The notes below the pieces were generated by a model. That model worked only from the letters and a program-made list of their open reading frames with translations. It was not told the DNA's origin and did no database searches. From assembly GCA_016868015.1 (NCBI GenBank), contig VGIF01000003.1, forward strand, positions 1-55,508: 55,508 nucleotides of DNA. The letters are read 5' to 3'. The translations under genes and the position numbers were made by a program. Shown in pieces: positions 122 to 55,259 of the stretch. Within the stretch, counting starts at the first letter, position 1. Each line of letters starts with the position of its first letter. Origin of the DNA: Betaproteobacteria bacterium (GTDB lineage Bacteria > Pseudomonadota > Gammaproteobacteria > Burkholderiales > SG8-41).

Positions 122-148
122 TATCTAGCTGATTTTATTGATCTTTTT
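122..148 (-). repeat. 27-bp AT-rich IHF-like dispersed motif, copy 1 (degenerate)
   Basis: Minus strand reads AAAAAGATCAATAAAATCAGCTAGATA; 22/27 identical to copy 2. Confidence 0.65.
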
Positions 149-215
149 AAATCAGTGGTACCGTTTGAGTTTCTGCGCAATAATGGCGCCGCGAAAATAA
201 CGGGAGGCCCGCTAC

Positions 216-971
216 ATGAACCCTCGCGCGGTAAATGCTGGCAACGGCATGCAGTGGATCGCGGACGGCTTTAACCTATTCGCCAAAAACGCGGTGATGT
301 GGCTGGTGCTGACAGTGTTGCTGTTGATCGCCGTGGTGATCGTGGCGATGATTCCGCTGATCGGCGCTATCGCCTTGTGGGTGTTGTGGCCGGTGTTGGT
401 GGGCGGCCTCATGCTGGGCTGCCGCGCGCTCGACAACGGCGAGACGCTCGAACTGCAACACTTGTGGGCGGGGTTTGAATCGGGTGACCGATTAACGCAA
501 TTAATCATCGTCGGCGCGGCCTATCTGATCGCGATGGCGGTGATCATCGGCCTCGCCTTCGCGGCGATTGGCTTGCCAGCACTGCAAAGCATCCGCGGCG
601 ATGGCGCAATGTCCTTCGCCGGTATCATCTCGCTGATCGGCAGCATGATGATCGGCGTGCTGCTCGCCATGGCCTTGATGGTGCCGTTGATGATGGCGGT
701 GTGGTTCGCGCCGCCGCTGATTTTGTTCAACCACCTCAACGCGGTGGATGCGATGAAGCTTTCTTTCGGCGCGTGCCTGCGCAATATTGTGCCGTTTTTG
801 ATTTACGGCGTGATCGTGTTTGCCTTGAACTTTGTCGCCGCGATCCCTTTTGGCCTGGGATATCTGGTGTGGATACCCGTGCTAATGGGTTCGCTTTACA
901 TGGGCTACAAGGATATTTTCGCGGTGGCCGAGCCCGCCGCCAAGGCGGCGGGAAACCCGTTGCTGCGTTAG
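216..971 (+). CDS. BPSS1780-family integral membrane protein
   Basis: 251 aa, multiple TM segments, N-terminal 'PRAVNAGNGMQWIADGFNLF' and 'WFAPPL...AMKLSF.AC..N..PF' typical of this family; GGGAGG SD upstream. Confidence 0.75.
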   Translation: MNPRAVNAGNGMQWIADGFNLFAKNAVMWLVLTVLLLIAVVIVAMIPLIGAIALWVLWPVLVGGLMLGCRALDNGETLELQHLWAGFESGDRLTQLIIVGAAYLIAMAVIIGLAFAAIGLPALQSIRGDGAMSFAGIISLIGSMMIGVLLAMALMVPLMMAVWFAPPLILFNHLNAVDAMKLSFGACLRNIVPFLIYGVIVFALNFVAAIPFGLGYLVWIPVLMGSLYMGYKDIFAVAEPAAKAAGNPLLR

Positions 972-1004
972 TGAAAACCGAATACACGATAACCACGACT
1001 CGCG

Positions 1005-1808
1005 ATGATCACCCTGAAAACCCCACTGAAGCTGTTCGCCGCCTGGCTCGCGCTGCTTCTGGCCCACGCCGGCGTGGTGGACGCGGCCGCACCCGCGGTC
1101 AAACAACCGCAGGTCGACACCCCCCGGCAGGTGTTGTTCGTCGGCAACAGCTATTTGTATTACAACGACAGCCTGCACAATCACGTGCGCCGCCTGGCGC
1201 TCGCCGCCGACCCCGCGCTCGCCAAGCAACTGCAATATAAATCGGCAACCATCGGCGGCGCGCCGCTATGGCATCACAATATCCAGCATCTGCTCACACC
1301 GGGCAACCTGGGCATGAAAGCGCCCTTCGATCTGGTCATTCTGCAAGGCGCCAGCACCGACGCCTTGACGCAGGCGCGGCAAGCACGCTTTCACCAGGAC
1401 GTGCTCGACTTTAGCGGCGAAATCGCCAAGCGCGGCGGCAAAACCGCGCTCTATATGACCCACGCGCACGTGCCGCCGAGCAAGTTCGCCGGCGCCGACA
1501 TGATGCGCCAGGTCGAAGCCATGTACATCGCCACGGGCAACGCCGCCGGCGCGCTGGTGATCCCCGTGGGACTCGCGTTCGAGGAAGCCTACCGCCGCCG
1601 CCCCGGCATCAAGCTGCACAAGGAGTACGACGGCTCGCACCCCGATCTGCTCGGCACCTATCTCGCCGCGTGCACGGTGTATGCCGCGGTCTACGGCAAA
1701 TCGGCGCTGGGCAACAGCTACGATTACTTCGGCCGCGTGGATAAAGACAGCGCCGCCTTCCTGCAGCAAGTGGCGGACGATACCGTGAAAAAGTTTTTCG
1801 GCCGGTAG
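1005..1808 (+). CDS. Secreted SGNH/GDSL-like hydrolase (DUF4886-like)
   Basis: Signal peptide, 'VLFVGNSY' block I and 'DGSHP' block V. Confidence 0.7.
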   Translation: MITLKTPLKLFAAWLALLLAHAGVVDAAAPAVKQPQVDTPRQVLFVGNSYLYYNDSLHNHVRRLALAADPALAKQLQYKSATIGGAPLWHHNIQHLLTPGNLGMKAPFDLVILQGASTDALTQARQARFHQDVLDFSGEIAKRGGKTALYMTHAHVPPSKFAGADMMRQVEAMYIATGNAAGALVIPVGLAFEEAYRRRPGIKLHKEYDGSHPDLLGTYLAACTVYAAVYGKSALGNSYDYFGRVDKDSAAFLQQVADDTVKKFFGR

Positions 1809-1813
1809 CGCGC

Positions 1814-2377
1814 TTGCGCAAGCAACGCCAACGCCTTTACGCCGCAGCCATCGGGCTGGGCATGCTTACGGTCGTGGCGGCAGCGCAAAACACGGTGCCC
1901 GTCACCGTGGAAATAACATTGACTGAGATGCTAGACGAGCCACGCGGATTGTGCATCGACATCGTCGGCTGGCAAACGCGGGCAAATCCTGCGCAAGGCT
2001 TGCAGGCCCACACCTGTTACAGCTATCAGGGCACGATCGCGGCCGATCAAGGTTTCGATGCCTCGCGCCTGGCACGCGGCGAGTTTCGCCTGCCCGCGTT
2101 TGACGTGTGCATGACCCACCGCGATCACCACCCCGGTGCGCAGCTCACCCTGGCTGCCTGCGACGAGAGCACGCCACAGATGTTCGAGCTTCGGCCCGAT
2201 GGCCGTATCGCCACCCGCCAGGCGAGCGCGCTGTGCCTCACGGTAAGCGACTCGCCGAGCCGGCCCGGCGGCGGCGGCCAACCGCCGCACCTGATACGGC
2301 CGCTCATCCTGGAGCCCTGTGCCGACGAGCGCTTGCGATTTCAGCGCTGGCAGTTGCGGCCCGGGCTTGCGCGTTAA
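1814..2377 (+). CDS. Secreted ricin-type beta-trefoil lectin domain protein
   Basis: Signal peptide, 'GLCIDI', repeated Cys pairs, 'QMF' and 'QRW' QxW-like repeats; TTG start uncertain. Confidence 0.65.
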   Translation: MRKQRQRLYAAAIGLGMLTVVAAAQNTVPVTVEITLTEMLDEPRGLCIDIVGWQTRANPAQGLQAHTCYSYQGTIAADQGFDASRLARGEFRLPAFDVCMTHRDHHPGAQLTLAACDESTPQMFELRPDGRIATRQASALCLTVSDSPSRPGGGGQPPHLIRPLILEPCADERLRFQRWQLRPGLAR

Positions 2378-2382
2378 CGCCA

Positions 2383-5501: not shown

Positions 5502-6851
5502 TTACACGGCGCGCGCCGCGTCGAGCAACTCGCGCACGTTATCCACGCGCTCCAGCGTATCAACCAGGGTGACGATGCGCCGCGCCGCCGCTTCAGGAAT
5601 CACCCCGCGCGCCGCCGTGTTGAGCTTGGCGACGATTTCGGCGCGGCTTAGCGGATCGGCCGCATCGCCCTTGGCCACCGGGCGATTGTCGGTGTGCGTA
5701 ACACCAGCCGTGGTTTTGATCTCGACGATGGTAGCCGTGCCCTGCACCGCGGCATCGGCGCGCACCTTGACTTTGCCGCGCGCGAACGCGTCCACCGCTT
5801 TGTCGGCAATGCGCGCGGGCTCGAACTGATCGAGCCAACAGGCGCGGTCGTGCAGCACGATCGAGGTGATGTACGGCATTGACAGCAGCGCCTTGAATTT
5901 GTCATCCCACGCCAGCGTGCCGTGCATGTCGTAGACGCCGGGCGAGAGCGCCACCCGCACCTCGGCGATGTCGGCGGGCCTCAGGTTGTGTTTTTCGGCG
6001 AGCGCGAAAAGCGCGGTGATCACCGATTGCACCGAGCTTGCCGCTGGCCACAAGCGCAGCGAAATTTGTTCGAGCTGCCATTGTTGACCGAGGCCGCCGG
6101 TCAACAACTCCGGCTTGCCGCCGTCGGAATAGGCGTTGTAGATGCCGCCGTCTTTGTGCACGAGAATTTCGCTGGAGGCGAGAAACCCGGTCTGCGCCAG
6201 CAAGCCCGCCATCAAGCCCGACAACGCGCCGCGGCATTGATGAAACTTGATCGTCGGCGTGCCCCAATGCGCAAACGTGCCCGCCGATTGCGACCCGGCA
6301 AGCCCGAACGCCATCAACTGCTTGCCGGCGTCAAAGCCGCACAACTTGCCCACCGCCGCGGCGCCACCAAACGGCCCCACCACGCCCGGCGAATGCCAGC
6401 CGCGCGCGCGAAACGCGCTGTAGTGCGTGCCGTTGGCCACGCGCACCGAGGTCTCCAGGCCGGCCGCCACCGCGGTGAGTAATGCCTTGCCGCTCGCGCC
6501 ATCGCGCTCGGCCAGCGCCAACGCACCGGGAATCACTTGCGGCGTGGTGTGATAAAGCGTGGGCCGATGCACGTCACACACGGTCACCGCGGTAACGAGA
6601 TAACCGTTCAACAACGTCGCGCCGGCGAGCGAGAGTTTGTCGCCGCCGATGATGCTCGCCTCGCGCGATGCGCCCAGCGCGCCCGCCAGCGCGCGTATCT
6701 GCTTCACCTCCTCGCCGCGCGTGCCGGCGAGCGCGCTGGCAATCGCATCGAGCATGATGTCCTTGACGCGCTCGCGCACCGCGGCGGGAATTTGTTCGTA
6801 GTGCAAGCCGGCGATGAAGGCGGCTAATTCGGCAGTGGGGGTGTTTGACAT
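5502..6851 (-). CDS. MmgE/PrpD family protein
   Basis: 'LAAFIAGLHYEQIP', 'RGWHSPG..G.FG', C-terminal 'KGD..DPLS..E...K'. Confidence 0.88.
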   Translation of the reverse strand: MSNTPTAELAAFIAGLHYEQIPAAVRERVKDIMLDAIASALAGTRGEEVKQIRALAGALGASREASIIGGDKLSLAGATLLNGYLVTAVTVCDVHRPTLYHTTPQVIPGALALAERDGASGKALLTAVAAGLETSVRVANGTHYSAFRARGWHSPGVVGPFGGAAAVGKLCGFDAGKQLMAFGLAGSQSAGTFAHWGTPTIKFHQCRGALSGLMAGLLAQTGFLASSEILVHKDGGIYNAYSDGGKPELLTGGLGQQWQLEQISLRLWPAASSVQSVITALFALAEKHNLRPADIAEVRVALSPGVYDMHGTLAWDDKFKALLSMPYITSIVLHDRACWLDQFEPARIADKAVDAFARGKVKVRADAAVQGTATIVEIKTTAGVTHTDNRPVAKGDAADPLSRAEIVAKLNTAARGVIPEAAARRIVTLVDTLERVDNVRELLDAARAV

Positions 6852-6877
6852 AAGTATTTGATTTTATTGATATTTTT
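6851..6877 (-). repeat. 27-bp motif copy 2; last A is the A of the PrpD ATG
   Basis: AAAAATATCAATAAAATCAAATACTTA followed by TG. Confidence 0.9.
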
Positions 6878-7019: not shown

Positions 7020-9707
7020 CTAAGCGGGCGGCGCGGCGTCTTGCAACTTCAGACGTAACGCCACCACGCCCGGTTCGTCACCCGCTTGCAGCGCAAAGCC
7101 ACACTCGCGCGCCAGCGCCAGCATGCCATCATTGTTGCGCAGTGTGATCGCGGTTAACGCGCCGGTGCCGCGAGCGCGGCTATAGGCGATGATTTTTTGC
7201 ATCAGCCGCGTGCCCAGGCCGCGGCCCTTGAGATCGGAGCGCACCAATATCGCGAACTCGGCTTCGGTGTTATCCGGGTTGGCGATGGTGCGCACCACGC
7301 CTAGGGTTTGCGCGTGGGGCGTGCCGTCATCGGCGCTGGCGATAAACGCCATTTCGCGGTCGTAGTCGATCTGGGTAAAGCGCGCGAGCTGCGTGCCGGT
7401 AATGGTGCGCACCGCGTGAAAAAAACGCATTTGCAAATCCTGCGCGTCGACCTGGTCGAGAAAGCGCGCGTGCGCGGGTGCGTCTTCCGGGCGGATCGGG
7501 CGCAGCACAAGGTCGCGCCCGGCAATGTTGACGCGTTCGCCAAGCTCGTTGGGATAAGGCCGTATCGCCAAACGATCGCTGCCGCGTTGCGCGGCGGGCG
7601 TGACGCGGATGCGCGCATCGAGCGCGATCACGCCCTTCTCATCGGCGAGCAGCGGGTTGATGTCGATCTCGGCGATGTCGGCGATATCCACCATCAACTG
7701 CGACAGTTGCACCAATGCGAGTTCGACCGCTCCACGTTTCACCGGCGGGCGATCGCGATAACCCTGAAGCAGTTTGGACACCCGCGTGCGCGAAATCAAA
7801 TCCGCGGCCAGCGTCAGATTCAACGGCGGCAACGCCATCGCGCGGTCCGCCACTACCTCCACCGCCACGCCGCCCTGGCCGAACAGCATCACCGGGCCGA
7901 ACACCGAATCGACGGCGGCGCCGGCGATGGTTTCCACCGCGTTGGGGCGCACGATCATTTCCTGCACGGTGAAACCGGCGAGCGTGGCGTGCGGCGCGCG
8001 TTCGGTAAGCCGCCGCGCCATCGCTTGTGCGGCGTGGCGCACTTCCTCGGCATTGGCGAGATTTAACGCTACACCGCCGACATCGGATTTGTGCGTGACT
8101 TGCGGCGAATCGATCTTCAAAGCCACCGGAAAACCGATTTGCGCCGCGACGTTCACCGCGTCGTCCACGTTCGCCGCGCTTTGCGTACGCACGACGGGAA
8201 TACGATACGCCGCCAGCACGCGCCGCGCTTCGCGTTCGCTTAACCACGCGCGGCCCGCGGCGAGCGCCTCGGTCACCGCCGCGCGCGCGGCCGCGACATC
8301 GGACGTGAAATCAGCCGACATCGACGGCGGAATTTCCATCAACAACTGCTGGTTGCGTTGGTAATTGGCGAGCTGCAAAAACGCCGCCACCGCTTGCTCC
8401 GGCGTGTCGTAACAGGGGATGCCCGCCGCCTCGAAAAAGCGCCGCGCGTGCGCCACCGCGTCCACGCCCAGCCAGCACGCCAGCACGCGCTTGCCCTTGG
8501 CGAGCGGCGCGCACGCGCGCGCGATCTCCTGCGCCACGGTGATCGCGGTGGGTACATAAATGAACAGCACCGCGTCGCAGGCGTCATCGTCGAGCAACGC
8601 CGACAGCGCCGCGACATAACGCGGGGTTGACGCGTCACCAACGATATCCACCGGGTTGCCGTGCGACCAGGTCACCGGCAACGCGGCATCGAGCCGCGCG
8701 ATGGTTTGCGGGCTTAGCGCCGCCAGCGTACCGCCGGCGAGCGACAGGGCATCAGCCGCCATCACCGCCGGGCCGCCGCCGTTGGTCATGATCGCCAGGC
8801 ATTTGCCCGCCACCGGTTGCGCGCGCGCCAGCGTTTGCACCGTGTCAAAGAGCTCCTGGATGGTGTTCACGCGCAGCATGCCGGCGCGTCTTAATGCCGC
8901 ATCGTAAACGTCGTCCGCACCCGCCAGCGCGCCGGTGTGCGAGGCCGCGGCGCGCGCGCCTTCCGGGGCGCGGCCCGCTTTCACCACCAGCACCGGTTTG
9001 TTGCGCGCGGCGGCGCGCGAAGCCGACATGAATTTGCGCGCGGCGCCAATCGATTCGGCGTAGAGCAAAATCGCGCGGGTTTGGGGGTCGCTCGCCAAAT
9101 AATCGATGACATCGCCGAAGTCGACATCGGCCGCATCCCCCAGCGAAATAAAATGCGAAAAGCCGATGCCACGCAACTTCGCGCTATCGAGCACCGCGGT
9201 GGTGAGCCCGCCCGATTGCGAGACGAACGCAATGCCGCCCGCGTCGGCGGTGGTATGCGCGAAACTCGCATTCAAACCGATGCCCGGCACCAGCAGCCCC
9301 ACGCAGTTCGGCCCGAGAATGCGCAACAGATAAGGCCGCGCCGCATCGCGCATCGCTTGCACGATGCTGTTGCCCTGATCGTCACGCGCGCGCGCCACGC
9401 CGCCGGTGATCACCACCGCCGCGCGCGTACCGCGTTCACCCAGGGCGCGGATCAATCCCGGCAAGGTCGGCGGCGGCGTGGCGATCACCGCGAGATCGGG
9501 CGTTTGCGGCAACTGCGCCACATCGGCGTAGGCGCGCTCGCCCATCACCGTGCGATGACGCCGGTTTAGCGCGTAGATGGGGCCGCTAAAACCGCCCTCG
9601 CGCATGTTGCGAAACACCGTCGCCCCGACGCTGCCCGAGCGGTCAGACGCACCGATCACCGCCACCGATCGCGGCGCGAACATCAAATGCAGATTGCGAA
9701 TACTCAT
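7020..9707 (-). CDS. Bifunctional acyl-CoA synthetase (NDP-forming)-like / GNAT protein lysine acetyltransferase (Pat/Pka/YfiQ type)
   Basis: 895 aa; 'PRSVAVIGAS', 'GPNCVG', 'SQSG', 'SHTGALAG', ATP-grasp 'HKSDVGGV', C-terminal GNAT 'QIDYDREMAF...AEFAILVRSDLKGRGLG'. Confidence 0.92.
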   Translation of the reverse strand: MSIRNLHLMFAPRSVAVIGASDRSGSVGATVFRNMREGGFSGPIYALNRRHRTVMGERAYADVAQLPQTPDLAVIATPPPTLPGLIRALGERGTRAAVVITGGVARARDDQGNSIVQAMRDAARPYLLRILGPNCVGLLVPGIGLNASFAHTTADAGGIAFVSQSGGLTTAVLDSAKLRGIGFSHFISLGDAADVDFGDVIDYLASDPQTRAILLYAESIGAARKFMSASRAAARNKPVLVVKAGRAPEGARAAASHTGALAGADDVYDAALRRAGMLRVNTIQELFDTVQTLARAQPVAGKCLAIMTNGGGPAVMAADALSLAGGTLAALSPQTIARLDAALPVTWSHGNPVDIVGDASTPRYVAALSALLDDDACDAVLFIYVPTAITVAQEIARACAPLAKGKRVLACWLGVDAVAHARRFFEAAGIPCYDTPEQAVAAFLQLANYQRNQQLLMEIPPSMSADFTSDVAAARAAVTEALAAGRAWLSEREARRVLAAYRIPVVRTQSAANVDDAVNVAAQIGFPVALKIDSPQVTHKSDVGGVALNLANAEEVRHAAQAMARRLTERAPHATLAGFTVQEMIVRPNAVETIAGAAVDSVFGPVMLFGQGGVAVEVVADRAMALPPLNLTLAADLISRTRVSKLLQGYRDRPPVKRGAVELALVQLSQLMVDIADIAEIDINPLLADEKGVIALDARIRVTPAAQRGSDRLAIRPYPNELGERVNIAGRDLVLRPIRPEDAPAHARFLDQVDAQDLQMRFFHAVRTITGTQLARFTQIDYDREMAFIASADDGTPHAQTLGVVRTIANPDNTEAEFAILVRSDLKGRGLGTRLMQKIIAYSRARGTGALTAITLRNNDGMLALARECGFALQAGDEPGVVALRLKLQDAAPPA

Positions 9708-9791: not shown

Positions 9792-9818
9792 AAAATATTC
9801 AATTAAATCAAATACTTA
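9792..9818 (+). repeat. 27-bp motif copy 3
   Basis: AAAATATTCAATTAAATCAAATACTTA in a divergent intergenic region, 3 bp from the FNR-like box. Confidence 0.9.
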
Positions 9819-10571: not shown

Positions 10572-11297
10572 ATGACTTATTTGACCGAGTTCCCGCTCTC
10601 GGTGCTGCAGTTTTATGCCACCGCGCCGTATCCGTGCAGTTATTTGCCGGAGCGCCTGGCACGCTCGCAAGTCGCGACACCCAGCCACCTGATCGACAGC
10701 GCCGTTTACAGCGAATTGATGCGCGCGGGTTTTCGCAGGAGCGGCGCGTTTACCTATCGGCCGCACTGCGATCATTGCCAGGCGTGCGTGCCGGTGCGCA
10801 TCGTCGTTGATGAATTTTCGCCCGGCCGCACCCAGCGCCGCTACGCCAGGCGCCACGGCGCGCTCGCCACGCACATGCTGGATCTCACCTACCGCGCCGA
10901 ACACTATGCGCTGTATTTGCGCTACCAATCCAGCCGCCACAGCGGCGGCGGCATGGATCAGGATAGCCGCGAGCAGTACCGGCATTTTTTGTTGCAAAGC
11001 AATTTGAAGTCGCGCTTGATCGAATTTCGCGATCAAGGCCGGCTGCGCATGGTGAGCATCCTTGACCAATTGGCCGACGGCATTTCTTCGGTTTATACGT
11101 TTTTCGATCCCGATGTGGCGGGGGCGAGTTTCGGCACCTATAACATCCTGTGGCAAATCGAATTGTGCCGCAAACTGGGCTTGCCGTATTTGTATCTGGG
11201 CTACTGGATCAAACAAAGCCGCAAGATGGCCTACAAGATTCAGTTTCAGCCGATCGAGGGGCTGGTGGATAACCGGTGGCAAGCGCTTAAAGCGTAG
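10572..11297 (+). CDS. bpt: Aspartate/glutamate leucyltransferase (Bpt; ATE family)
   Basis: 'YPCSYL', 'GFRRSG..YRPHC..C.AC.PVRI', 'SSVYTFFDP', 'YLGYWI..S.KM.YK..F.P'. Confidence 0.93.
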
Positions 11298-11298
11298 A

Positions 11299-11387
11299 AG
11301 GATGGGTGGAGGGCGCAGGCCGTAACCCATCGCGACGGGTGCTAAAAATGAAGGACGTGATGGGTTACGCTTCGCTCCACCCATCCT
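11299..11387. repeat. GTAG-type REP doublet (degenerate)
   Basis: AGGATGGGTGGAG..CGTAACCCATC ... GATGGGTTACG..CTCCACCCATCCT inverted pair between bpt and ald. Confidence 0.75.
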
Positions 11388-11400
11388 GCAGGGGCCTCTC

Positions 11401-12513
11401 ATGAAAATCGGCGTTCCCAAGGAAATCAAAAACCACGAATACCGCGTCGGCGTCACGCCCGACGGCGCGCGCGCGCTGGCCGCGGCGGGCCATGCGGTGC
11501 TGGTGCAAACCGGGGCCGGCGCGCGCGTGGGTTTCGCCGATGCGCAATACGCCGCCGCGGGCGCGCACATCGTGGCCACGCCGCACGAGGTTTACGCCTG
11601 CGACATGGTGATCAAGGTCAAGGAATTGCAGCGCGCCGAATTTGCGCTGCAGCGGCCGGGGCTTATTTTGTATTGCTACCAGCACTTCGCGCCGGATCGC
11701 GAATTGCTCGATGCGGCGTTGGGTAGCGGCGTCACCGGCATTGCGTATGAAACGGTGAGCGCGCCCGATGGCAGTTTGCCGCTGCTAACGCCGATGTCGG
11801 CGATCGCCGGACGCCTTGCGCCACAAGTCGGTGCGTGGGCCTTGCAAATGGCGAACGGGGGCAGCGGCGTGCTGTTGGGCGGCGTACCGGGCGTGCTGCC
11901 CGCGCGCGTGTTGATCGTCGGCGGCGGCATCGTCGGCGGCAACGCCGCGCGCATCGCGCTGGGCATGGGCGCGGAGGTGACGCTGATCGACCGCAGCGCG
12001 GCCAGGCTTGCGCATCTCGAAGACGTGTTCGGCGCACGTTTAAAAACCGCGATTTCCGACGCGCCCACGATCGAAGCGCTGGCGGCCGCGGCCGACCTCA
12101 TTATCGGCGCGGTACTGCTGCCGGGCAAACTTGCGCCGCGGTTGATCCGCCGCGCCGATCTAAAACGCATGCGGCCGGGCTCGGTGATCGTCGATGTCGC
12201 CATCGACCAGGGCGGCATTTGTGAAACCTCGCGCCCGACCTCGCACAGCGAGCCGCTCTACGTCGAGGAAGGCATCGTGCACTACTGCGTGCCCAACATG
12301 CCCTCGGCGGTGGCGCGTACGGCCACGCTGGCGTTAACCCAGGCAACGCTGCCGCTCGCACTTGACATCGCCAACCGCGGGCTAAACGCCGCGCTCGCCG
12401 CCAACCCGGGCCTGCGCCCCGGTGTGCAAACGTATCAAGGCAAAGTCACCCATGCCGATCTCGCGCAGGATAGCGGGCGCGCGTATACCGCGCTCGATAC
12501 ATTGTTATCGTAA
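11401..12513 (+). CDS. ald: Alanine dehydrogenase
   Basis: '[17 protein letters not shown]', 'IAYETV', '[12 protein letters not shown]', 'GGVPGV', '[11 protein letters not shown]', 'HYCVPNMP'. Confidence 0.96.
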
Positions 12514-13169
12514 TGCCGCGCACTGGTGAAATCGACGTTAGCGACGTTAGCGACGCTAGCGACACGATCGACGCGATCGACGCGCTGCTGCCGCAGACGC
12601 AATGCGGCCAGTGCGGCTACGCCGGTTGCCGGCCGTATGCGCGGGCGCTCGCCGCGGGCGCGGCGCACATCAATCGTTGTCCGCCCGGCGGCGATGACGT
12701 GATCAACGATCTCGCACGCTTACTCAACGTCGCGGTGAAGCCGCTTGATACCTCATGCGGCATGCCCAAGCCGCCGGCGCTCGCCTTCATCGACGAAGCC
12801 TGGTGCATCGGTTGCACGCTGTGCATTCAAGCCTGCCCGGTGGACGCCATCGCCGGCGCGGCGAAGTTGATGCACACGGTGATCGCGGCTGAATGCACCG
12901 GCTGCGAGTTGTGCATAGCGCCGTGTCCGGTGGATTGCATTCAGATGGTCGCGGACGAACGCGCACAAGATCGCGAGGCGCGGCTCGCGCGCGCTAACCA
13001 CTGGCGCGCCCGCCATCAGGCGCGGCAATCACGCTTGGGCGTGGCAGGCGCGCCGCCCGCCACTCCCCCAGCGCAAGCGCCCACTGCCACCGGTCCCAAA
13101 CAGGCAGCCATCGCACGCGCCCTGGCGCGCGCTCAAGCCCGTATTACGAAAAAACAAAAATCTCAATAA
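12513..13169 (+). CDS. rsxB: RnfB/RsxB-like ferredoxin (no N-terminal TM anchor)
   Basis: '[17 protein letters not shown]...NRCPPGG' FeS domain plus two [4Fe-4S] motifs [12 protein letters not shown] / [12 protein letters not shown]. Confidence 0.9.
12531..12584 (+). repeat. In-frame 9-bp tandem array (6 units) at the RsxB N-terminus
   Basis: ATCGACGTT AGCGACGTT AGCGACGCT AGCGACACG ATCGACGCG ATCGACGCG = [18 protein letters not shown]. Confidence 0.75.
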
Positions 13170-13181
13170 AACAAATACTTA
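13156..13181 (+). repeat. 27-bp motif copy 4 (1-nt deletion), contains the rsxB stop
   Basis: AAAAATCTCAATAAAA-CAAATACTTA. Confidence 0.8.
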
Positions 13182-17603: not shown

Positions 17604-17618
17604 CCGGCGGTATTTATA

Positions 17619-17645
17619 TAAATTATTGATTTTATTGATATTTTT
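17619..17645 (-). repeat. 27-bp motif copy 5, between convergent genes
   Basis: AAAAATATCAATAAAATCAATAATTTA. Confidence 0.88.
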
Positions 17646-17696
17646 AGTGGCGCGTGTTGCCCCATCGCGCTCGAACGGTGACGGCGGCGTGAACCG

Positions 17697-18910: not shown

Positions 18911-18937
18911 TAAGTATTTGATCTTAAATGATTTTTC
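18911..18937 (-). repeat. 27-bp motif copy 6
   Basis: GAAAAATCATTTAAGATCAAATACTTA upstream of gltI. Confidence 0.75.
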
Positions 18938-21570: not shown

Positions 21571-21597
21571 TTCTTTACACGAAAAATCAAGCAGTTA
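21571..21597 (+). repeat. 27-bp motif copy 7 (core only)
   Basis: TTCTTTACACGAAAAATCAAGCAGTTA; perfect WATCAANNNNTTR core, 3 bp before a REP doublet. Confidence 0.55.
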
Positions 21598-25301: not shown

Positions 25302-25328
25302 TAAGTATTTGATTTTATTTAATATTTT
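25302..25328 (-). repeat. 27-bp motif copy 8, overlapping the argE stop
   Basis: AAAATATTAAATAAAATCAAATACTTA. Confidence 0.9.
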
Positions 25329-33697: not shown

Positions 33698-33724
33698 AAA
33701 ATATTCAATTAAATCAAATATTTA
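33698..33724 (+). repeat. 27-bp motif copy 10
   Basis: AAAATATTCAATTAAATCAAATATTTA. Confidence 0.9.
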
Positions 33725-36231: not shown

Positions 36232-36258
36232 TATGTATTTGTTTTAATTGATATTTTT
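36232..36258 (-). repeat. 27-bp motif copy 11
   Basis: AAAAATATCAATTAAAACAAATACATA. Confidence 0.8.
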
Positions 36259-37943: not shown

Positions 37944-37996
37944 GATGGTGTTGATACGAAGGCACTACCACTCAATTTCTCATAAGGGCCGTAGTC

Positions 37997-38722: not shown

Positions 38723-38737
38723 CGGCGCTTGCGCGCC

Positions 38738-38817
38738 GAGTGTTGAGTGTTGAGTGTTGAGTGACCAACGCTTCCTGTTAACTCAACACCCCCCCTCACG
38801 CCTCACGCCTCACGCCT
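38738..38817. repeat. Opposed heptamer arrays between convergent genes
   Basis: (GAGTGTT)3 GAGTG ... ACTCAACAC ... (CCTCACG)3 CCT. Confidence 0.8.
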
Positions 38818-39807
38818 TCAAAGACCCTTAATCCCCGCCGTCTTAACCACCCGCGTCCACAGCTCGCTCTCGGCTTTGATATGCGCCGCAAACTCGGCGG
38901 GTGAACTGCGCACGGGTTCCGAGCCTTCGGCCAGCAAGCTCTTCGCCATGTCGGGCGCGAGCATGGCTTTGGTGGCTTCGCTCGCCAGGCGATTGACGAT
39001 CGCGGCAGGCGTTTTGGCGGGCGCGATCAAGCCGTACCAATTGACCACCACCACGCCCTTGACGCCCGCTTCAGCAAACGTCGGTGTATTGGGAAGCGCG
39101 GGCACGCGTTTGGCCGGCGTCACCGCAAGCGGGCGCAGCCGCCCGCTGTTGATATGCGCGATCGACGAAATGATCGTCGGGAACGACGATTGCACCTGCC
39201 CGCCGATAAGATCAGTGTACGCCGCGCCCATGCCTTTGTACGGCACATGGGTCATCTGCGTACCCGTGGCGATTTTGAATAACTCGCCGCTCATGTGTAT
39301 GAGGCTGCCAATGCCCGACGAACTGAAATTCACCTTGTCCGGGTTCGCCTTGAGATGTTGCACGAACTCGGCCACCGATTTCGCCGGAATCGACGGGTGC
39401 ACCACCAGCACATAACCTTGCGAAGTCACTTGCGCGATCGGCGCAAAATCGCGCACGATGTCAAAGCGTGATTTGTAGAGCAGCGGGTGCACCACCGTGG
39501 TGGCGCTCAACATCATCAGCGTATGGCCGTCGGGCGCGGCATTGGCCATGATCTCCAGCGCTATTTGACTGCCCGCGCCGGGGCGATTGTCCACCACAAA
39601 ACTTTGGCTGAACGCGTCGGATAATTTCAGCGACAACCCACGCGTCACCGTGTCCATGCCGCCGCCCGCGGCAAGCGGCACCAAGGTGCGCACCGGCCGC
39701 GCCGGGTATTGCTGCGCCTGCGCGCTGCCGATCGCGCTCAGTGCCACAATCAGTGCTGCAATCGGCGATATTACATAAGCATTTGATTTAATTGAATATT
39801 TTTTCAT
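38818..39807 (-). CDS. Bug/TctC receptor
   Basis: 'YPARPVR..VP..AGG..D', 'DNRPGAG', 'HVPYKG'; N-terminus KYSIKSNAY is encoded by the 27-bp motif. Confidence 0.9.
   Translation of the reverse strand: MKKYSIKSNAYVISPIAALIVALSAIGSAQAQQYPARPVRTLVPLAAGGGMDTVTRGLSLKLSDAFSQSFVVDNRPGAGSQIALEIMANAAPDGHTLMMLSATTVVHPLLYKSRFDIVRDFAPIAQVTSQGYVLVVHPSIPAKSVAEFVQHLKANPDKVNFSSSGIGSLIHMSGELFKIATGTQMTHVPYKGMGAAYTDLIGGQVQSSFPTIISSIAHINSGRLRPLAVTPAKRVPALPNTPTFAEAGVKGVVVVNWYGLIAPAKTPAAIVNRLASEATKAMLAPDMAKSLLAEGSEPVRSSPAEFAAHIKAESELWTRVVKTAGIKGL
39776..39802 (-). repeat. 27-bp motif copy 12, inside the first codons of a Bug gene
   Basis: AAAATATTCAATTAAATCAAATGCTTA. Confidence 0.9.
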
Positions 39808-39847
39808 AGTTATCCAGCGCCTCAAAAAAACGAGGCCGCAGGATAAC

Positions 39848-41020
39848 CTAAATCGCGAGATCGAACTTGTTGTAATCGCGAATCACGCGCTCGAAGGTCG
39901 CATCGTTGAAGCGAAACTCGCCTTCGCGCCCCGCGAACGGTTTGTAGTTGAACGGCTTTTCATTCGGAAAATGTTGCCGGCGCGCATCGATCGCGACTTG
40001 GATCACTTGCGCGCGCCGCTCGATGCGCGCTTCGTCGTAGTGCACGCCTTCCTCGCGCACGCTCAACGCGGTGTGCGAGCCCAGCACCGAACGGCGGCGA
40101 TGGAAACCAAAGGTGATCGAAATACGCAAATCGGGCGAGGTGTTGGCGAACGAGCCGTGCAGCGTTTGGCGATTGACGATGGTGACGTCACCCGGCTTGC
40201 AAATCAGCGGCAGCGCGCCCGGCAGTTGTTCGCTGCCGTCGTTGGCTTGCACCATACCCTTGATGTCGGCCTTACCTTTTTTGTGCGTGCCGGGTATCAC
40301 CCACAGCGCGTTGCCCACCGTGGTCGGATAGATTTGCACCTGGTAATTAAAGCCGTGCGTGCCTTCGTCCCACGCCGGCGAATTCCAGTGCGTAACACCA
40401 TCCTGATGCCACGATACCGAGCCGCCGAGCCCCGGCTGCTTGACAAAGATCACGTCGTTAAACGGCACAAAGTCCTCGCCATTCACCGACGCGGCGATGC
40501 CTAACAGCGTCGGATGGCCATACACGCGTAATCCCGCCGGCATGTGCATGCACATGCGCCGCATGCGATACACCACATACGCCGGCGCGTCCGAGTCGGG
40601 TGTGGGCTCCGCCATTTTGCTCGGATGACGGCCGCCGAAAATGCCGCTGCCGCCGGATGGGTCGGACAGCGGTTTGATGATGGTGAAGGTCTCGCGCAAG
40701 CCATCCTTGCCGATCGCGGGCCGGCCTTTGGCATCGACTTCGGCACCCGGCGCCACCGGCGCGCGCTCTAGCATGTTGGCGGCGTCGCGGCGCAGTTCTT
40801 CCACTTCTTCCGGCGACACCACATTTTCGAAAATGTAGTAGCCGTGCTTCCAGTACGCATCAAGGATGTCTTGATGCAGTTTGCCGCTGGCATCGAAACG
40901 CGCGGGGCCGCGGCTGTTGATCTCGTTGGCGAGGTTCAAACCGGCCGCTTGATACGCCGCCATGCCTTGCGCGTGCTGCGCGCGGGTGAGTGTGCTGTTG
41001 GGTTCGAGGACGGTGCTCAT
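39848..41020 (-). CDS. Phytanoyl-CoA dioxygenase (PhyH) family Fe(II)/2OG enzyme
   Basis: 'K.PG.GG.V.WHQDG', 'LWVIPGTH', 'HGSFAN.S...R'; GGAGG SD before ATG 41020. Confidence 0.88.
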   Translation of the reverse strand: MSTVLEPNSTLTRAQHAQGMAAYQAAGLNLANEINSRGPARFDASGKLHQDILDAYWKHGYYIFENVVSPEEVEELRRDAANMLERAPVAPGAEVDAKGRPAIGKDGLRETFTIIKPLSDPSGGSGIFGGRHPSKMAEPTPDSDAPAYVVYRMRRMCMHMPAGLRVYGHPTLLGIAASVNGEDFVPFNDVIFVKQPGLGGSVSWHQDGVTHWNSPAWDEGTHGFNYQVQIYPTTVGNALWVIPGTHKKGKADIKGMVQANDGSEQLPGALPLICKPGDVTIVNRQTLHGSFANTSPDLRISITFGFHRRRSVLGSHTALSVREEGVHYDEARIERRAQVIQVAIDARRQHFPNEKPFNYKPFAGREGEFRFNDATFERVIRDYNKFDLAI

Positions 41021-45695: not shown

Positions 45696-45722
45696 AAAAT
45701 ATTTAATAAAATCATATAGTTA
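45696..45722 (+). repeat. 27-bp motif copy 13, abutting the GST start codon on the opposite strand
   Basis: AAAATATTTAATAAAATCATATAGTTA; REP half 8 bp downstream. Confidence 0.8.
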
Positions 45723-50236: not shown

Positions 50237-50263
50237 AAATTTCCCTTTAAAATCAAATATTTA
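50237..50263 (+). repeat. 27-bp motif copy 14, 2 bp before an ATG
   Basis: AAATTTCCCTTTAAAATCAAATATTTA. Confidence 0.72.
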
Positions 50264-50265
50264 AG

Positions 50266-52502: not shown

Positions 52503-52529
52503 AATTTTTTGAATAAAATCAAATACTTA
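52503..52529 (+). repeat. 27-bp motif copy 15; last A is the A of the protease ATG
   Basis: AATTTTTTGAATAAAATCAAATACTTA followed by TG. Confidence 0.85.
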
Positions 52530-53881
52530 TGATGAAACGCTTTTTACTTCAACTATTCGGGTTAGTTACCGCGGTCACAGCGCTAATACATCACACCCAC
52601 GCCGCCGAAATCCGCGGCATGCCCACGCTGGCGCCGCTGGTCAACGAGGTCACCCCCGCGGTGGTCAATATCTCGGTGGTCACGCGCTCGCCGATGGAAA
52701 ACAACCCGCTGTTTCGCGATCCGTTTTTCCGGCGCTTTTTTGGCATCCCCGAGCAACAACAGCGCGAACAAGCCGCGGGCTCCGGCGTCATCGTTGACGC
52801 AGCGCAAGGCTTGGTGCTCACCAACAACCACGTGATCAAGGATGCCGAGCGCGCCATCGTCACGTTAAAAGACCGGCGGCAATTTAACGCCAAACTGGTC
52901 GGCACCGACCCCGGCACCGACATCGCGGTGCTTAAAATAGAAGCCGCGGGTTTGACCGCGTTAAAACTCGGCGACTCCGACAGCCTGCAAGTAGGGGACT
53001 ATGTGCTCGCCATCGGCAACCCGTTCGGCATCGGGCAAACGGTGACCTCCGGCATCATCAGCGCGCTGGGCAGAAGCGGGCTTAACATCGAAGGCTATGA
53101 AGATTTCATCCAGACCGACGCCTCGATCAACCCCGGCAACTCCGGCGGCGCGCTGGTCAATCTGCGCGGCGAGTTGATCGGCATCAACACCGCGATCATC
53201 GGCCCCGCCGGCGGCAACGTCGGCATCGGCTTTGCCGTGCCCGCCAACATGGCGCGCGCGGTGATGATCCAGATCGTCAAATTCGGCGAAGTGCGCCGCG
53301 GCCGGCTCGGCATCGAGATGGCCGACCTTACGCAGGCGTTGGCTCAGAAGCTCGGCGTGAAAACGCTAGACGGCGTGATCATGGCGGTGGTGCAGCCGGG
53401 CTCCCCCGCGGACAAAGCCGGCTTGCGCGAAGGCGACGTCGTCATCGCCATGAACGGCCGCGCGGTGCGCAACGCGGCGGAACTGCGCGCGCGCCTGGGG
53501 TTAACCCCGATCGGCGAAGAGGTCGAACTACGCGTCATTCGCGGCGGCGCCCAACGCGGCGTCAAGGCGCGCATCGCCGCGCCCGAAACCACCGGCGGCG
53601 AAGGCACCGCCATCGCGCAACTGCCGGGCATGCGCGTGATCGAAATTCAGCGCGGCAGCCCGTTATTCAAACGCCTGCAAGGCGGCGGCCTGGTCGTATC
53701 CGCAGTCGATCAAACCAGCGCCGCGTGGACAGCAGGCTTCAGGCCCGGCGACATCATCTACGCCGTCAATCGCCGGCGCGTGCAAAGCGCGGCGGAACTG
53801 CAAAAATCGCTAAGCGGCGCGCAATCGTATGCCATCGCGTTGATACGCGGGGATTTTAGCTTGACGATCATGTTGCGGTAG
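52529..53881 (+). CDS. Do/DegQ-family periplasmic serine endoprotease
   Basis: Signal peptide; triad 'TNNHV', 'TDIAV', 'GNSGG'; two PDZ domains. Confidence 0.95.
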   Translation: MMKRFLLQLFGLVTAVTALIHHTHAAEIRGMPTLAPLVNEVTPAVVNISVVTRSPMENNPLFRDPFFRRFFGIPEQQQREQAAGSGVIVDAAQGLVLTNNHVIKDAERAIVTLKDRRQFNAKLVGTDPGTDIAVLKIEAAGLTALKLGDSDSLQVGDYVLAIGNPFGIGQTVTSGIISALGRSGLNIEGYEDFIQTDASINPGNSGGALVNLRGELIGINTAIIGPAGGNVGIGFAVPANMARAVMIQIVKFGEVRRGRLGIEMADLTQALAQKLGVKTLDGVIMAVVQPGSPADKAGLREGDVVIAMNGRAVRNAAELRARLGLTPIGEEVELRVIRGGAQRGVKARIAAPETTGGEGTAIAQLPGMRVIEIQRGSPLFKRLQGGGLVVSAVDQTSAAWTAGFRPGDIIYAVNRRRVQSAAELQKSLSGAQSYAIALIRGDFSLTIMLR

Positions 53882-54050
53882 TGCGCGAGGCATACGCTGC
53901 GTTTCGGTAGCGTTTCAATAGCGGTTGGGCAGAGGATTTCGTGCAACACACACGCGCAGAATGCCCCTCGAGCGTCAGCATCGTTTTCTGACTGGCAGGG
54001 GGCTGAGGTCGCCGCTAAACCGAAGTTCGCGAATCCAGAAAGTGGCGATT

Positions 54051-54123
54051 CGTAGCCCGCAAGGAGCGCGGCGTATTGCGGGAACACAGGTCCCGTATTT
54101 CGCTGCGCTGCATACGGGCTACG
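54051..54123. repeat. GTAG-type REP doublet
   Basis: CGTAGCCCG...GCGGGA / TCCCGT...CGGGCTACG. Confidence 0.8.
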
Positions 54124-54156
54124 CTGGCTCACGAATCAAGTGTTAACAGGCCCTAG

Positions 54157-54227
54157 TCAATCCGCCCAACCATTACCAACGCGCGGATCAATCCGCCCAA
54201 CTGTTACCAACGCGCGGATCAATCCGC
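54157..54227. repeat. 31-bp tandem duplication x2 plus partial copy; includes the Bug gene 3' end
   Basis: TCAATCCGCCCAACCATTACCAACGCGCGGA / TCAATCCGCCCAACTGTTACCAACGCGCGGA / TCAATCCGC. Confidence 0.85.
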
Positions 54228-55193
54228 GCGTATGCCCGTCTCCTTAATCAGCTTGGCCATGCGCTCGATTTCCGACTGGATCAGCGCCGCGAGTTCCGCC
54301 GGCGTGCTGGGCGTGACATCGATACCCAGATCGGTGAAACGCTCTTTCACATCCGGCAGTTGCAGCAGGCGGCGCAGCTCGCCCGCCAGTGTGTTGACGA
54401 TGGGCGCCGGCACGGCGGCATTGGTGAGCATGCCCCACCACGAGTCGAACACGTAACCTGGCACCCCCGCCTCGGCCATGGTCGGCAGCTTGGGCGCCAT
54501 CGGCGTGCGCGCGGCGCCGGTGACGGCGAGCGCGCGCAAGCGGCCGGTTTTCATGTGCGCGATCGCCACCGGCATGCTCGCGAACACCAGTTGAAGCTGC
54601 CCCGCGATCAGATCGGTGACCGACTGCCCGGTGCCCTTGTACGGCACATGCGTGATATTCACCTTGGCCAGCAGGCGAAACATCTCGCCGCTCAAGTGCG
54701 CGGGCGTACCACTGCCGCCGGAGCCGTAATTTAGCTCGCCGGGGCGCGCCTGCGCGAGCTTGATCAACTCGCGCACATTGGTCACCGGCACCGACGGATG
54801 CACCACCAGCGCCACCGGGCCAACCGCGATCTTGCCGATGGGCGCAAAATCCTTGACCAAGTCATAACCCGGATTACGGTAGAGCGCGCGATTGATGGTC
54901 GTCGTCACGCTCGCAACCACCATGGTGTAACCATCCGGCGCGACGCGTGCCGCGGCCGTCATGCCCAGATTGCTCGCCGCACCGGGGCGGTTATCGACCA
55001 GCACTGTCTGCGAGAGCCCTTCCGACATTCTTTCCGCCAAAATGCGTGCAATCAAATCGCTCGAACCGCCCGGCGGAAACGGCGCGATCATACGCACCGG
55101 CTTCACCGGAAAATTTTGTGCGTATAACGGCGCCCCACACGCCAACAACACAGCGCACAACAGCGCGCCGCCACAGCATTTGCACTCACTCAC
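54219..55193 (-). CDS. Bug/TctC receptor
   Basis: 'FPVKPVR...FPPGG..D', 'DNRPGA', 'PDGYT', 'HVPYKG'; AGGAGG SD with GTG start. Confidence 0.92.
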   Translation of the reverse strand: MSECKCCGGALLCAVLLACGAPLYAQNFPVKPVRMIAPFPPGGSSDLIARILAERMSEGLSQTVLVDNRPGAASNLGMTAAARVAPDGYTMVVASVTTTINRALYRNPGYDLVKDFAPIGKIAVGPVALVVHPSVPVTNVRELIKLAQARPGELNYGSGGSGTPAHLSGEMFRLLAKVNITHVPYKGTGQSVTDLIAGQLQLVFASMPVAIAHMKTGRLRALAVTGAARTPMAPKLPTMAEAGVPGYVFDSWWGMLTNAAVPAPIVNTLAGELRRLLQLPDVKERFTDLGIDVTPSTPAELAALIQSEIERMAKLIKETGIRAD

Positions 55194-55232
55194 GATGCCC
55201 CTCCTGATTTTTATGGCCTTACCAGCCTTAAC

Positions 55233-55259
55233 AAAACTATCAATTAAATCAAATACTTA
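55233..55259 (+). repeat. 27-bp motif copy 16
   Basis: AAAACTATCAATTAAATCAAATACTTA in a divergent intergenic region. Confidence 0.9.

Follow-up and report, generated by a model that had tools for sequence, protein, structure and literature searches.

The window, that is, the whole 55,508-nucleotide stretch of contig VGIF01000003.1 analyzed here, carries copies of an AT-rich element that behaves like a selected protein-binding site rather than a mobile repeat. On balance, we favor with moderate confidence the view that these copies belong to a vertically inherited, selected family of approximately 1,000 sites per genome for a DNA-bending nucleoid protein, most likely IHF alpha/beta. We infer IHF as the reader, the bending of DNA at the sites, and an architectural role. 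The motif was not found described in the literature searched.

Anatomy and abundance of the element

We scored sequences with a matrix derived from the window's own copies and defined family membership by a threshold of at least 30 bits. The 4.55-Mb genome contained 961 copies (211 per Mb), 480 on the + strand and 481 on the - strand, and 1166 matches (256 per Mb) at a threshold of at least 20 bits; because the matrix was made from window copies, these counts tilt towards the genome's own dialect. The preliminary description of this DNA had forecast roughly 250–300 copies per Mb.

The site is an asymmetric block of approximately 35 bp, (WW)AAAAWATTCAATAAAATCAAATACTTACGWA, with a conserved part of 27–35 bp. 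Its 3' half is an IHF core, and its 5' half is an A/T tract approximately one helical turn upstream; positions 1–4 of the element, 14 to 11 bases before the W of the core, are A in 91–97% of copies. The exact consensus WATCAANNNNTTR occurs in 708 of the 961 family copies, which account for 708 of its 949 matches in the genome, whereas the reversed pattern, used as a control, gave 24 matches. A/T content in the flanks oscillates from 0.30 to 0.56, the best-fitting period on both sides being 10–10.5 bp, and phased A/T-rich positions extend approximately 45 bp to each side of the element, which is consistent with bending.

Copies in the window and at orthologous junctions

All 16 stretches named in the preliminary description were located, eight on each strand as it had counted. 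Fifteen are solid family members at about 33–50 bits; the matrix recovered these and no further window copies at 30 bits or more. The remaining one, 21571..21597 (+), is marginal, as it scores 15.8 bits, under the 30-bit threshold, and has the core AATCAAGCAGTTA without the 5' half. The A+T fraction per copy is 0.70–0.93, and the G+C content of the window is 58–65%. The two main variants had 4 and 5 matches at no more than 3 mismatches compared with 0 in 100 shuffles, indicating that the motif is more frequent than in shuffled DNA. The earlier counts within the core were reproduced: WATCAANNNNTTR is matched exactly by 10 of the 16 copies, and its NNNN reads ATAT in 3 copies and ATAC in 7, or 8 once the copy at 13156 is shifted.

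We compared the window's junctions with those of relatives in which both flanking genes were syntenic (genomes G006, G002, G005 or G009). Where the window junction has an element, 17 of 22 comparisons showed it kept, with unchanged orientation in 16; where the window junction has none (gap of at least 40 bp), an element was present in 1 of 30 comparisons. The genes of the species compared are only approximately 72–83% identical; because the relatives are so distant, intergenic gaps are not alignable between them.

Two copies have orthologous copies in all four relatives, namely 25302..25328 (-; 49.7 bits), in a tandem gap of - genes and in the genes' orientation, and 45696..45722 (+; 44.2 bits), in a similar gap with the opposite orientation, which is identical in all relatives. 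The copy at 13155..13181 (+; 32.7 bits; core AAAACAAATACTTA, without the T) fits better there than at 13156, one base to the right; it takes up the whole of a 32-bp tandem gap and extends over the stop of gene 12513-13169, and its orthologous junction is occupied in G006, G002 and G005. Two copies end on the A of a first ATG: 6851..6877 (-; 49.0 bits), of ORF 5502-6851 (-), adjoins the ATG in G006 and G002 too, and 52503..52529 (+; 41.7 bits), of ORF 52529-53881 (+), has orthologous copies in G002, G005 and G009, each ending TTATG. The copy at 18911..18937 (-; 34.5 bits), oriented against the genes of a tandem + gap, has orthologous counterparts in two relatives, G002 and G009, while G014 retains a 16-bit remnant. 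Three further copies lie in divergent gaps: 36232..36258 (-; 43.5 bits; core AAACAAATACATA) has orthologous copies in G006 and G005 and none in G009; 50237..50263 (+; 36.7 bits), with a 5' half of the CTTTA type, has one in G002; and the junction of 9792..9818 (+; 50.0 bits; gap 9707/9861) is, among the relatives compared, occupied only in G006.

Copies also turn over. Two are present only in this genome: 30829..30855 (-; 46.3 bits), oriented against the genes of a tandem + gap, whose junction gave a weak best match of 10.8 bits among five relatives compared, and 33698..33724 (+; 49.5 bits), in a divergent gap, with no element at the junction in G006 or G002; in four metagenome relatives, the region upstream of the gene likewise gave none. 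Conversely, junctions J22, J33, J43 and J46 carry the element only in a relative. Five copies were found in contigs of four other sequencing runs without any presence/absence difference, which is a weak test because all four runs contain the same strain; the sites at 30829 and 33698 are each bridged by contigs from two other runs, and a contig from one other run bridges 39776..39802 (-; 46.2 bits), which lies between two - genes where a crude gene call overruns the element.

The other copies are 122..148 (-; 35.4 bits), which has the degenerate core AATCAGCTAGATA and lies 68 bp ahead of the + gene that begins at 216, oriented away from that gene; 17619..17645 (-; 41.8 bits), placed by crude gene calls in a convergent gap (17603/17697) as previously described; and 55233..55259 (+; 45.8 bits), near the contig end and 40 bp past the start of the - gene 54219-55193.

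Placement among genes and spacing

By crude gene calls, whose starts are unreliable and which miss small genes, 91 of the 961 copies are intragenic. Copies occur in every gap type without orientation bias, which upholds the earlier view that a simple promoter or operator would not explain the element: 265 copies in tandem gaps share the genes' orientation and 250 oppose it, and 120 lie in convergent gaps, where occupancy resembles that of other gap types. A single copy is found in 761 gaps and two copies in 11. Occupancy is 0.20–0.44 at any gap length from 20 bp up, and overall approximately one in four to one in three gaps of at least 20 bp hold a copy, including 70 of 326 gaps of 20–40 bp. 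In the window, most copies have a gene start no more than 100 bp away. The genes flanking copies have no common function.

Copies are more evenly spaced than chance predicts. In comparison with 500 permutations matched for gap length, the coefficient of variation of inter-copy spacing was 0.60 (expected 0.84 ± 0.03), and the fraction of inter-copy distances below 1.5 kb was 0.085 (expected 0.24 ± 0.017). Long distances are cut off because the genome is in 366 contigs.

Fit to IHF and association with sigma-54 promoters

The A-tract of the element extends from 14 to 9–11 bases before the W of the core, which is the register of the A6 tract of lambda H' in the lambda record. The lambda core AATCAACTACTTA, which we take to be H1, since the labels H', H1 and H2 are absent from the record, differs from the element core at 1 of 13 positions. 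Classical IHF sites (H', H1 and H2 of lambda attP) share with the element the asymmetric core WATCAANNNNTTR, the A-tract register of H', a block of approximately 35 bp, and a position between the binding sites of activators and sigma-54 promoters. However, classical sites are individually diverse with NNNN free, whereas approximately 1,000 copies here share nearly all of 27–35 bp, occupy approximately one in four to one in three gaps between genes, have species dialects, and read AACAA in most of the genus.

The genome encodes ihfA and ihfB as NCBIfam equivalogs (NF001401, 163 bits, and NF001222, 154.9 bits, respectively) in the gene contexts pheT-ihfA and rpsA-ihfB. No further PF00216 genes were found in the genome, leaving IHF alpha/beta as the only DNABII protein found. 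The expansion of ihfA or ihfB paralogues for which the preliminary description had proposed a search was not observed.

Placement relative to sigma-54-like sites also agrees with a bend. Of 94 intergenic sigma-54-like sites, 21 have an element whose centre is 20–80 bp upstream of the -12 element, and of 50 controls with the reversed pattern, 1 does (Fisher p = 0.001). The distances show only marginal helical phasing, with R = 0.50 at a period of 10.5 bp and p approximately 0.04 by permutation. The genes downstream of 10 sigma-54-like sites with an element include those for allophanate hydrolase, asparaginase, an assimilatory nitrate-reductase-like protein and an NMT1-type binding protein.

Several observations count against IHF as the reader. 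No elements lie within approximately 1.5 kb of ihfA or ihfB, and no IHF residue was found that separates element-bearing from element-free genomes in both genera. The information content of the element far exceeds the level usually deemed enough for IHF, and such an excess is the signature of repeats under a copying or drive process. IHF is not known to read the NNNN positions base by base.

Taxonomic range and dialects

The host is a freshwater bacterium of a genus in family f1. In this genus, 20 of 21 genomes carry the element, each with its own dialect; in the remaining one, G014, 375 consensus matches have a variable NNNN, and 2 of 150 scored gave profile matches. The element also occurs in one genus of another family, g12 of family f8, whose dialect is nearly identical to that of this genome. 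Among 100 other genomes of the order, 95 had no profile match, 3 had a single match, and only the two g12 genomes had many. The element is absent from four other f1 genera, which have 24–70 consensus matches compared with 949 in this genome. The preliminary description had allowed for an ordinary IHF landscape, and these counts argue against it.

The core in most of the genus is the AACAA form AAAAACAAATACTTA, which breaks the T of WATCAA and counts against IHF. The exact WATCAA is therefore peculiar to this genome and a small number of its relatives, and the claim of an IHF-consensus core holds here but not for the genus at large. The T and A forms had exact counts of 242 and 10 in this genome, 0 and 205 in G005, and 9 and 365 in G008. 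Orthologous copies follow the dialect of their genome, NNNN included, as in G009 with CAATTAGTT at three junctions, which likewise counts against IHF.

These dialects would be expected if some other sequence-specific system read the sites, with uniformity arising from genome-wide drive and the IHF likeness being partial or secondary. We consider this explanation unlikely; candidates would be a DNA-uptake receptor, as for the uptake sequences of Neisseriaceae (DUS) and Pasteurellaceae (USS), or an uncharacterized nucleoid protein common to both genera. Uptake sequences are evenly spaced, and their cores are approximately 9–12 bp long and common inside genes. The element resembles them in its many copies with exactly balanced strands (DUS and USS occur in hundreds to thousands of copies, equally on both strands) and in its spacing, which is evener than chance. 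Also in favor of such a system are the concerted change at orthologous sites, NNNN included, the abandonment of WATCAA by most of the genus, the patchy range of one f1 genus plus g12 without four other f1 genera, and the near equality of the g12 dialect to that of this genome. Lineage dialects are recorded for uptake sequences (PMC3630211, for Neisseriaceae, and PMC2817400). Unlike DUS and USS, however, the element is a much longer, information-rich block of 27–35 bp, AT-rich in a GC-rich genome and nearly all intergenic. Its IHF-site geometry with phased flanks and its enrichment at the bend position of sigma-54 promoters also argue against uptake or drive, and the analysis brought up no candidate reader.

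Comparison with mobile repeats

The preliminary description had left the choice between a repeat family and a lattice of sites; placement in all gap types in either orientation, one copy per gap, spacing, unique flanks, covariation without subfamily linkage, orthologous retention and the sigma-54 position favor the lattice. A selfish or formerly mobile mini-repeat with an IHF site, Correia-like, would have spread by copying in an ancestor of most of the genus, and in g12 separately or by transfer, and would now be largely fixed with some copies co-opted. This origin appears quite improbable to us. Nevertheless, an extended sequence near-identical at approximately 1,000 loci is rarely produced by binding selection alone, the absence from G014 and sister genera suggests a bounded time of origin, and copies turn over at 30829 and 33698 and at the four J junctions. 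There are also precedents for repeats with IHF sites, as IHF binds in vitro to the Correia element, which is 155 bp long (PMC2229807).

The structure of the element speaks against such a repeat. Four copies folded as single-stranded DNA gave -0.1 to -2.6 kcal/mol (z -0.33 to +1.07), indicating no hairpin, and the consensus is not self-complementary in the manner of a REP/BIME-type palindrome. Its termini agree at 4 of 12 positions, that is, without a terminal inverted repeat, and the best direct-repeat excess, a 3-mer in 24 of 957 copies, indicates no target duplication. The element is accordingly non-palindromic and free of such termini and duplications, as initially described. There were 703 distinct 27-mers among 957 copies, and covariation in the alignment was limited to adjacent columns, without subfamily linkage. 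Flanks are unique, with a non-self BLAST match in just 126 and 130 of 937, and they contain the phased A/T, which an inserted block would not be expected to bring. The single copy per gap at any length, the mutual avoidance of copies, their long same-orientation retention at orthologous junctions and, as a weak test within one strain, the five copies unchanged across other runs also argue against a mini-repeat.

RIP/RIB elements number on the order of 100 copies. Both RIP/RIB (BIME-1) of E. coli and the 155-bp Correia/NEMIS of Neisseria are, like the element, dispersed intergenic repeats with an IHF site. However, they are built on palindromes or terminal inverted repeats with the IHF site as a passenger, whereas the present element consists entirely of the IHF-type site, has no palindrome and approximately ten times more copies than RIP/RIB. 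REP/BIME elements have been described as sites to which several proteins bind (PMC2817692).

A promoter part (UP element or alternative-sigma promoter) or a global regulator's operator is highly improbable, because, although most window copies lie close to a gene start and UP elements are similarly AT-rich, convergent gaps are occupied as others are, orientation in tandem gaps is balanced, gaps of 20–40 bp leave no room for a promoter, and flanking genes lack a common function.

A possible architectural role

The distribution of the sites looks like a chromosome-folding pattern encoded in DNA. If the copies are selected sites for a bending protein, their main role would be architectural: at intervals of a few kilobases, the DNA would bend sharply at a set position, where supercoil loops could be pinned or the limits of domains marked. 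The sites occur once per gap, are indifferent to gene orientation and avoid one another within approximately 1.5 kb. Through the phased flanks, the U-turn that the protein induces would continue as a segment of approximately 130 bp of curved or wrapped DNA. Single sites may also serve locally, bending DNA between an activator and the sigma-54 promoter of nitrogen-assimilation genes.

More tentatively, the lineage may encode its chromosome architecture in approximately 1,000 maximal-strength bend sites, a single one in each gap chosen, approximately every 4 kb, and each in approximately 130 bp of phased curved DNA. In this extended proposal, which is possible but doubtful, the reader and the sites would co-evolve, and therefore whole genomes would change dialect, the core T becoming A and the 'free' positions going from ATAC to TTAG. 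The occurrence in a second genus would then reflect convergence on an optimum for a conserved protein or transfer of the reader. If true, this system would be the nucleoid-protein counterpart of uptake-sequence dialects.

HIP1 of cyanobacteria is hyper-abundant and has an unassigned role. Like the element, it is a short motif far above chance that is selected and may have a structural role (PMC5861425); HIP1 is an 8-bp palindrome inside genes, whereas the element is long, asymmetric and intergenic, with a likely known reader.

A family of conserved AT-rich elements in the window and the genome

All 16 of the 27-bp stretches named in the preliminary description were found where it had placed them, divided as it said into eight on each strand. 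Fifteen are good copies, whereas the one at 21571 is the 13-bp core alone (15.8 bits on a matrix built from the window copies) and the copy assigned to 13156 fits better when begun one base earlier, at 13155, and is missing the T in ATCAA. The two variants singled out there had 4 and 5 matches with at most three mismatches, against 0 in 100 shuffles, and an exact match to the IHF consensus, WATCAANNNNTTR, was again present in 10 of the 16 copies. The A+T content, put at close to 90% for the two main variants, varied from 0.70 to 0.93 per copy in a window of 58–65% G+C. The element had been called non-palindromic and free of terminal inverted repeats and target duplications; we looked for a fold, a terminal inverted repeat and a target duplication and found none of them. 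Rfam gave 0 matches within the window.

The copies at 30829, 33698 and 39776 were bridged by contigs from other public runs with 0–2 differences; therefore, they are not assembly artefacts. The listed public runs that contain window 30000–39999 number 24. Their labels are lake-water or freshwater metagenome throughout, none is an RNA run, and 11 have at least half of the words of this stretch. Four public runs that we compared represent the same strain at low depth, with 0–2 differences per contig, and no joints or insertions/deletions were listed in them at five element positions.

The window is contig C3 of a fragmented assembly (4.55 Mb, 366 contigs, 60.8% G+C). Using the window matrix, and thus this genome's own dialect, we counted 961 copies without overlap that score at least 30 bits, of which 480 are on the plus and 481 on the minus strand. 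The conserved block extends from about 2 bases before the originally assigned start to about base 35 and reads (WW)AAAAWATTCAATAAAATCAAATACTTACGWA, with a tight 3' half, AAATCARATACTTAYR, and a looser, W-rich 5' half. There were 703 distinct 27-mers among 957 copies; covariation in this set was restricted to neighbouring columns (10-11, 6-7 and 21-22), and the analysis revealed no linked subfamilies of variants. The flanks are unique, as other BLAST hits were obtained for just 126 and 130 of 937, mostly to a different palindromic repeat. Contig ends were not enriched (54 copies within 300 bp versus 46 expected).

A second, unrelated repeat lies at window 11291–11400. It is a GC-rich palindrome of about 90 bp (folding at -56.5 kcal/mol) that looks like a REP- or MITE-type element. 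BLAST gave 35 hits to it here and many, in both orientations, in G006, another genome of the genus. Most of the similarity seen between flanks of the AT-rich elements comes from this repeat.

Placement and spacing of the element

Gene calls were home-made and crude, consisting of long ORFs in which third codon positions are rich in G+C (3763 genes, 82% of the genome). In tandem gaps, 265 of the 961 copies had the orientation of the genes and 250 the opposite one, and 120 copies lay in convergent gaps, which agrees with the earlier view that the element is not simply a promoter. The remaining copies were in divergent gaps (159), inside called genes (91) or at contig edges (76). One copy was present in 761 gaps and two in 11. 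Occupancy was 0.20–0.44 in every gap-length class from 20–40 bp up, and many short occupied gaps are barely longer than the element itself. The copies were spaced too evenly for chance: the coefficient of variation was 0.60 versus 0.84 ± 0.03, and the share of spacings below 1.5 kb was 0.085 versus 0.24 ± 0.017, the null being 500 permutations in which occupancy was reassigned among gaps of the same length class, with the contigs unchanged. A site required about once per few kilobases would have these properties; a promoter, a terminator or an element that inserts at random would not. A search for DnaA-box clusters beside an element gave no pointer to an origin of replication: the best cluster (contig C83) is upstream of xseA, not dnaA.

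Inheritance at orthologous junctions

We compared syntenic regions junction by junction with five genomes of the genus (G006, G002, G005, G009 and G014), in which the genes are 64–85% identical; a metagenome scan for closer relatives reached a best protein identity of 79% over the full length and 88% over a partial one. When both flanking genes were adjacent in the relative, the element was kept in 17 of 22 comparisons, 16 of them in the same orientation, whereas for element-less window gaps of at least 40 bp the relative had an element in 1 of 30. With one-sided matches added, these values were 21 of 39 and 5 of 61. G014 gave one weak match in nine junction comparisons. The junctions matching window 17603–18101 in G002 (locus L109, contig C90) are an N stretch, and the comparison for the copy at 17619 leaves out this genome.

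Site-specific variants were kept, TCCTTTAAAA at the 45696 junction being common to G006, G002 and G005. Orthologous copies also followed the dialect of the genome they are in: three junctions of G009 have AAAAACAATTAGTT, and at three of five in G005 an A replaces this genome's T. Turnover was seen at the copies at 30829 and 33698, for which the relatives examined offered no clear counterpart (nothing better than a weak match of 10.8 bits in G006), and at four junctions with an element in a relative only. Identity at orthologous junctions was 0.67 for the element versus 0.34 for the flanks, but the pairing was loose and two arbitrary members of the family show about the same similarity, so this comparison was set aside.

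Range and dialects

The core occurs in two main forms, of the ATCAA (T form) and AACAA (A form) type. Exact counts of the T form, AAAATCAAATACTTA, and the A form, AAAAACAAATACTTA, were 242 and 10 in this genome, 313 and 201 in G006, 0 and 205 in G005, 9 and 365 in G008, and 0–41 and 21–209 in the other species of the genus, with none in G014. The T-form share across the genus was 0 to 0.96. Positions 8–17 of the element bear an apparent likeness to the high-affinity motif of H-NS, one that is absent in the other dialects.

We built a sequence profile from 32 copies of five genomes and applied it to relatives sampled at one genome per species, scoring only the best 65–150 candidates of each. 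With 150 candidates scored per genome, the profile matched 62–150 in each of 20 among the 21 genomes of the genus but 2 in G014. No scored candidate matched in four other genera of the same family. Among 100 other genomes of the order, matches were found just in two genomes of g12, a genus of another family, where 17 and 46 out of 65 scored candidates matched, besides a single match in each of three further genomes of the order-wide sample; the g12 copies read AAAATATTCAATAAAATCAAATAGTTA, nearly the dialect of this genome. The IHF consensus was matched 24–70 times in the other genera of the family versus 949 times here, which counts against the ordinary IHF landscape that the preliminary description had named as a refuting outcome. 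The landscape of G014 is ordinary and fuzzy, with 375 consensus matches and variable NNNN positions; a private dialect was rejected, as a variant from one of its junctions gave 12 matches versus 10 for controls. Most of the genus thus has the 'crystallised' form as a derived trait.

Likeness to IHF sites and position at sigma-54 promoters

The IHF consensus was matched by 708 of the 961 copies. The whole genome has 949 such matches, 708 of which are therefore copies of the element; read backwards as a control, the consensus gave 24. The lambda attP region in the public record has three consensus matches, presumably H1, H2 and H', although unlabelled there. The A6 tract of H' lies 14 to 9 bases before W, which is the register of the A-tract of the element, and the core of the presumed H1 differs from the element core by one base. 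In the unique flanks, A/T content swings between about 0.30 and 0.56 with a best period of 10–10.5 bp on both sides; this periodicity is locked to the element and fades across four to five turns.

The region upstream of sigma-54 promoters is a classical place for IHF (cf. PMC7962754, in part). A scan of intergenic DNA for TGGCAC-N5-TTGC, with one mismatch allowed and GG and GC fixed, yielded 94 sites. The element centre was 20–80 bp upstream of the -12 element at 21 of these versus 1 of 50 reversed-pattern controls (Fisher p = 0.001), and in the mirror position downstream at just one. Both orientations occurred, and the distances cluster near -36, -47 and -59, with marginal helical phasing (p ~0.04). 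Downstream of ten sigma-54-like sites with an upstream element, the genes include those for an allophanate hydrolase, an assimilatory nitrate-reductase-like protein, an asparaginase and an NMT1-type binding protein (contigs C107, C226, C235 and C120; loci L202, L203, L207 and L210). These genes fit a nitrogen regulon, likely one under NtrC.

IHF proteins and the dialects

The IHF alpha gene follows pheT (ihfA, L121:1468-1800, minus strand) and the IHF beta gene follows rpsA (ihfB, L122:1501-1785, plus strand); both products match PF00216 and are NCBIfam equivalogs. An expansion of ihfA/ihfB paralogues, proposed in the preliminary description as something to look for, was not found, as this genome has no other DNABII protein by PF00216, and no HU gene. 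PF00216 matched ihfA and ihfB alone in 19 genomes out of the 21 of the genus, and a single gene each in G008 and G015. In G014, a third match is a divergent IHF-beta-like paralogue of 96 aa (L126:279-569, contig C113). Other families of the order mostly have 3–5 matches. Loss of HU as the cause was rejected: the element-free genomes G021 and G024 also have two matches and the element-bearing g12 genome G091 has three, i.e., absence of HU is not tied to presence of the element. Regarding autoregulation, no element of 15 bits or more was present within the loci around ihfA and ihfB. In G091, an element (C61:8303-8335) precedes a PF00216 (DNABII) gene (8345-8614) at a distance of 10 bp.

We compared the arms of IHF alpha and beta from 21–23 genomes (loci L121–L141 and L162–L188). 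The alpha arm-base residue (LR-x-KPQRPGRNP) is I in all eight genomes with a T-form share of at least 0.09 and in G020 (share 0); L, Q or M where the share is at most 0.07; and V in G014 and G031. Two genera without the element have D or E there. This residue is hydrophobic (I, L, V or M) or Q in every element-bearing genome, the V being shared with the family-less G014. For the beta arm, all ten genomes whose T-form share is at least 0.05 have R-V/I-GRNP, with T changed to V or I in one clade. This pattern is suggestive of arm residues co-evolving with the dialects, but it follows clades, i.e., is confounded by descent, and fails for g12.

Interpretation

The best account of the element is a family of selected, putative IHF-type bend sites that would have an architectural role and would partly have been co-opted at sigma-54 promoters. 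It accounts poorly for three features: the whole block is nearly identical among copies, dialects shift in concert, and the core of most species is AACAA. They could reflect a drive-like process or a different reader behind the family, or an origin by copying; the sites could both have arisen by copying and serve IHF today.

As a rule, IHF sites are weak, vary among themselves and are difficult to predict. Here, about 1,000 strong candidate bend sites, evenly spaced and kept across species, can be read straight from the sequence, which bears on how far nucleoid proteins make bacterial chromosomes adopt a fold encoded in their sequence. They allow one to ask whether fixed bends pin supercoil loops or domain boundaries, and whether neighbouring transcription units are insulated by them. 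In addition, the genus supplies natural intermediates, with T-form shares from 0 to 0.96, of a joint specificity change in a DNA-binding protein and a thousand sites, and in this uncultured group of freshwater bacteria the element may help to predict which sigma-54 promoters depend on IHF. Modelling indicates that IHF pins plectonemes and can split DNA into topological domains (PMC9519438, in part). We found no description of the motif or of a stand-alone IHF-site repeat family in the literature covered (full texts, with few subscription journals and without supplements); strings from the motif occur in two papers on phage P22. The nearest elements described are repeats in which a palindromic or inverted-repeat element encloses an IHF site (PMC2229807, in part).

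Elements adjoining start codons

At window 6851 and 52529, the last base of the element is the A of the first ATG of two long ORFs (…ACTTATG), and no Shine-Dalgarno sequence precedes these ATGs. Either these ORFs start from an A/U-rich leader without a Shine-Dalgarno sequence, or their true starts are further downstream. TTATG is retained at the same place in orthologues from G006, G002, G005 and G009.
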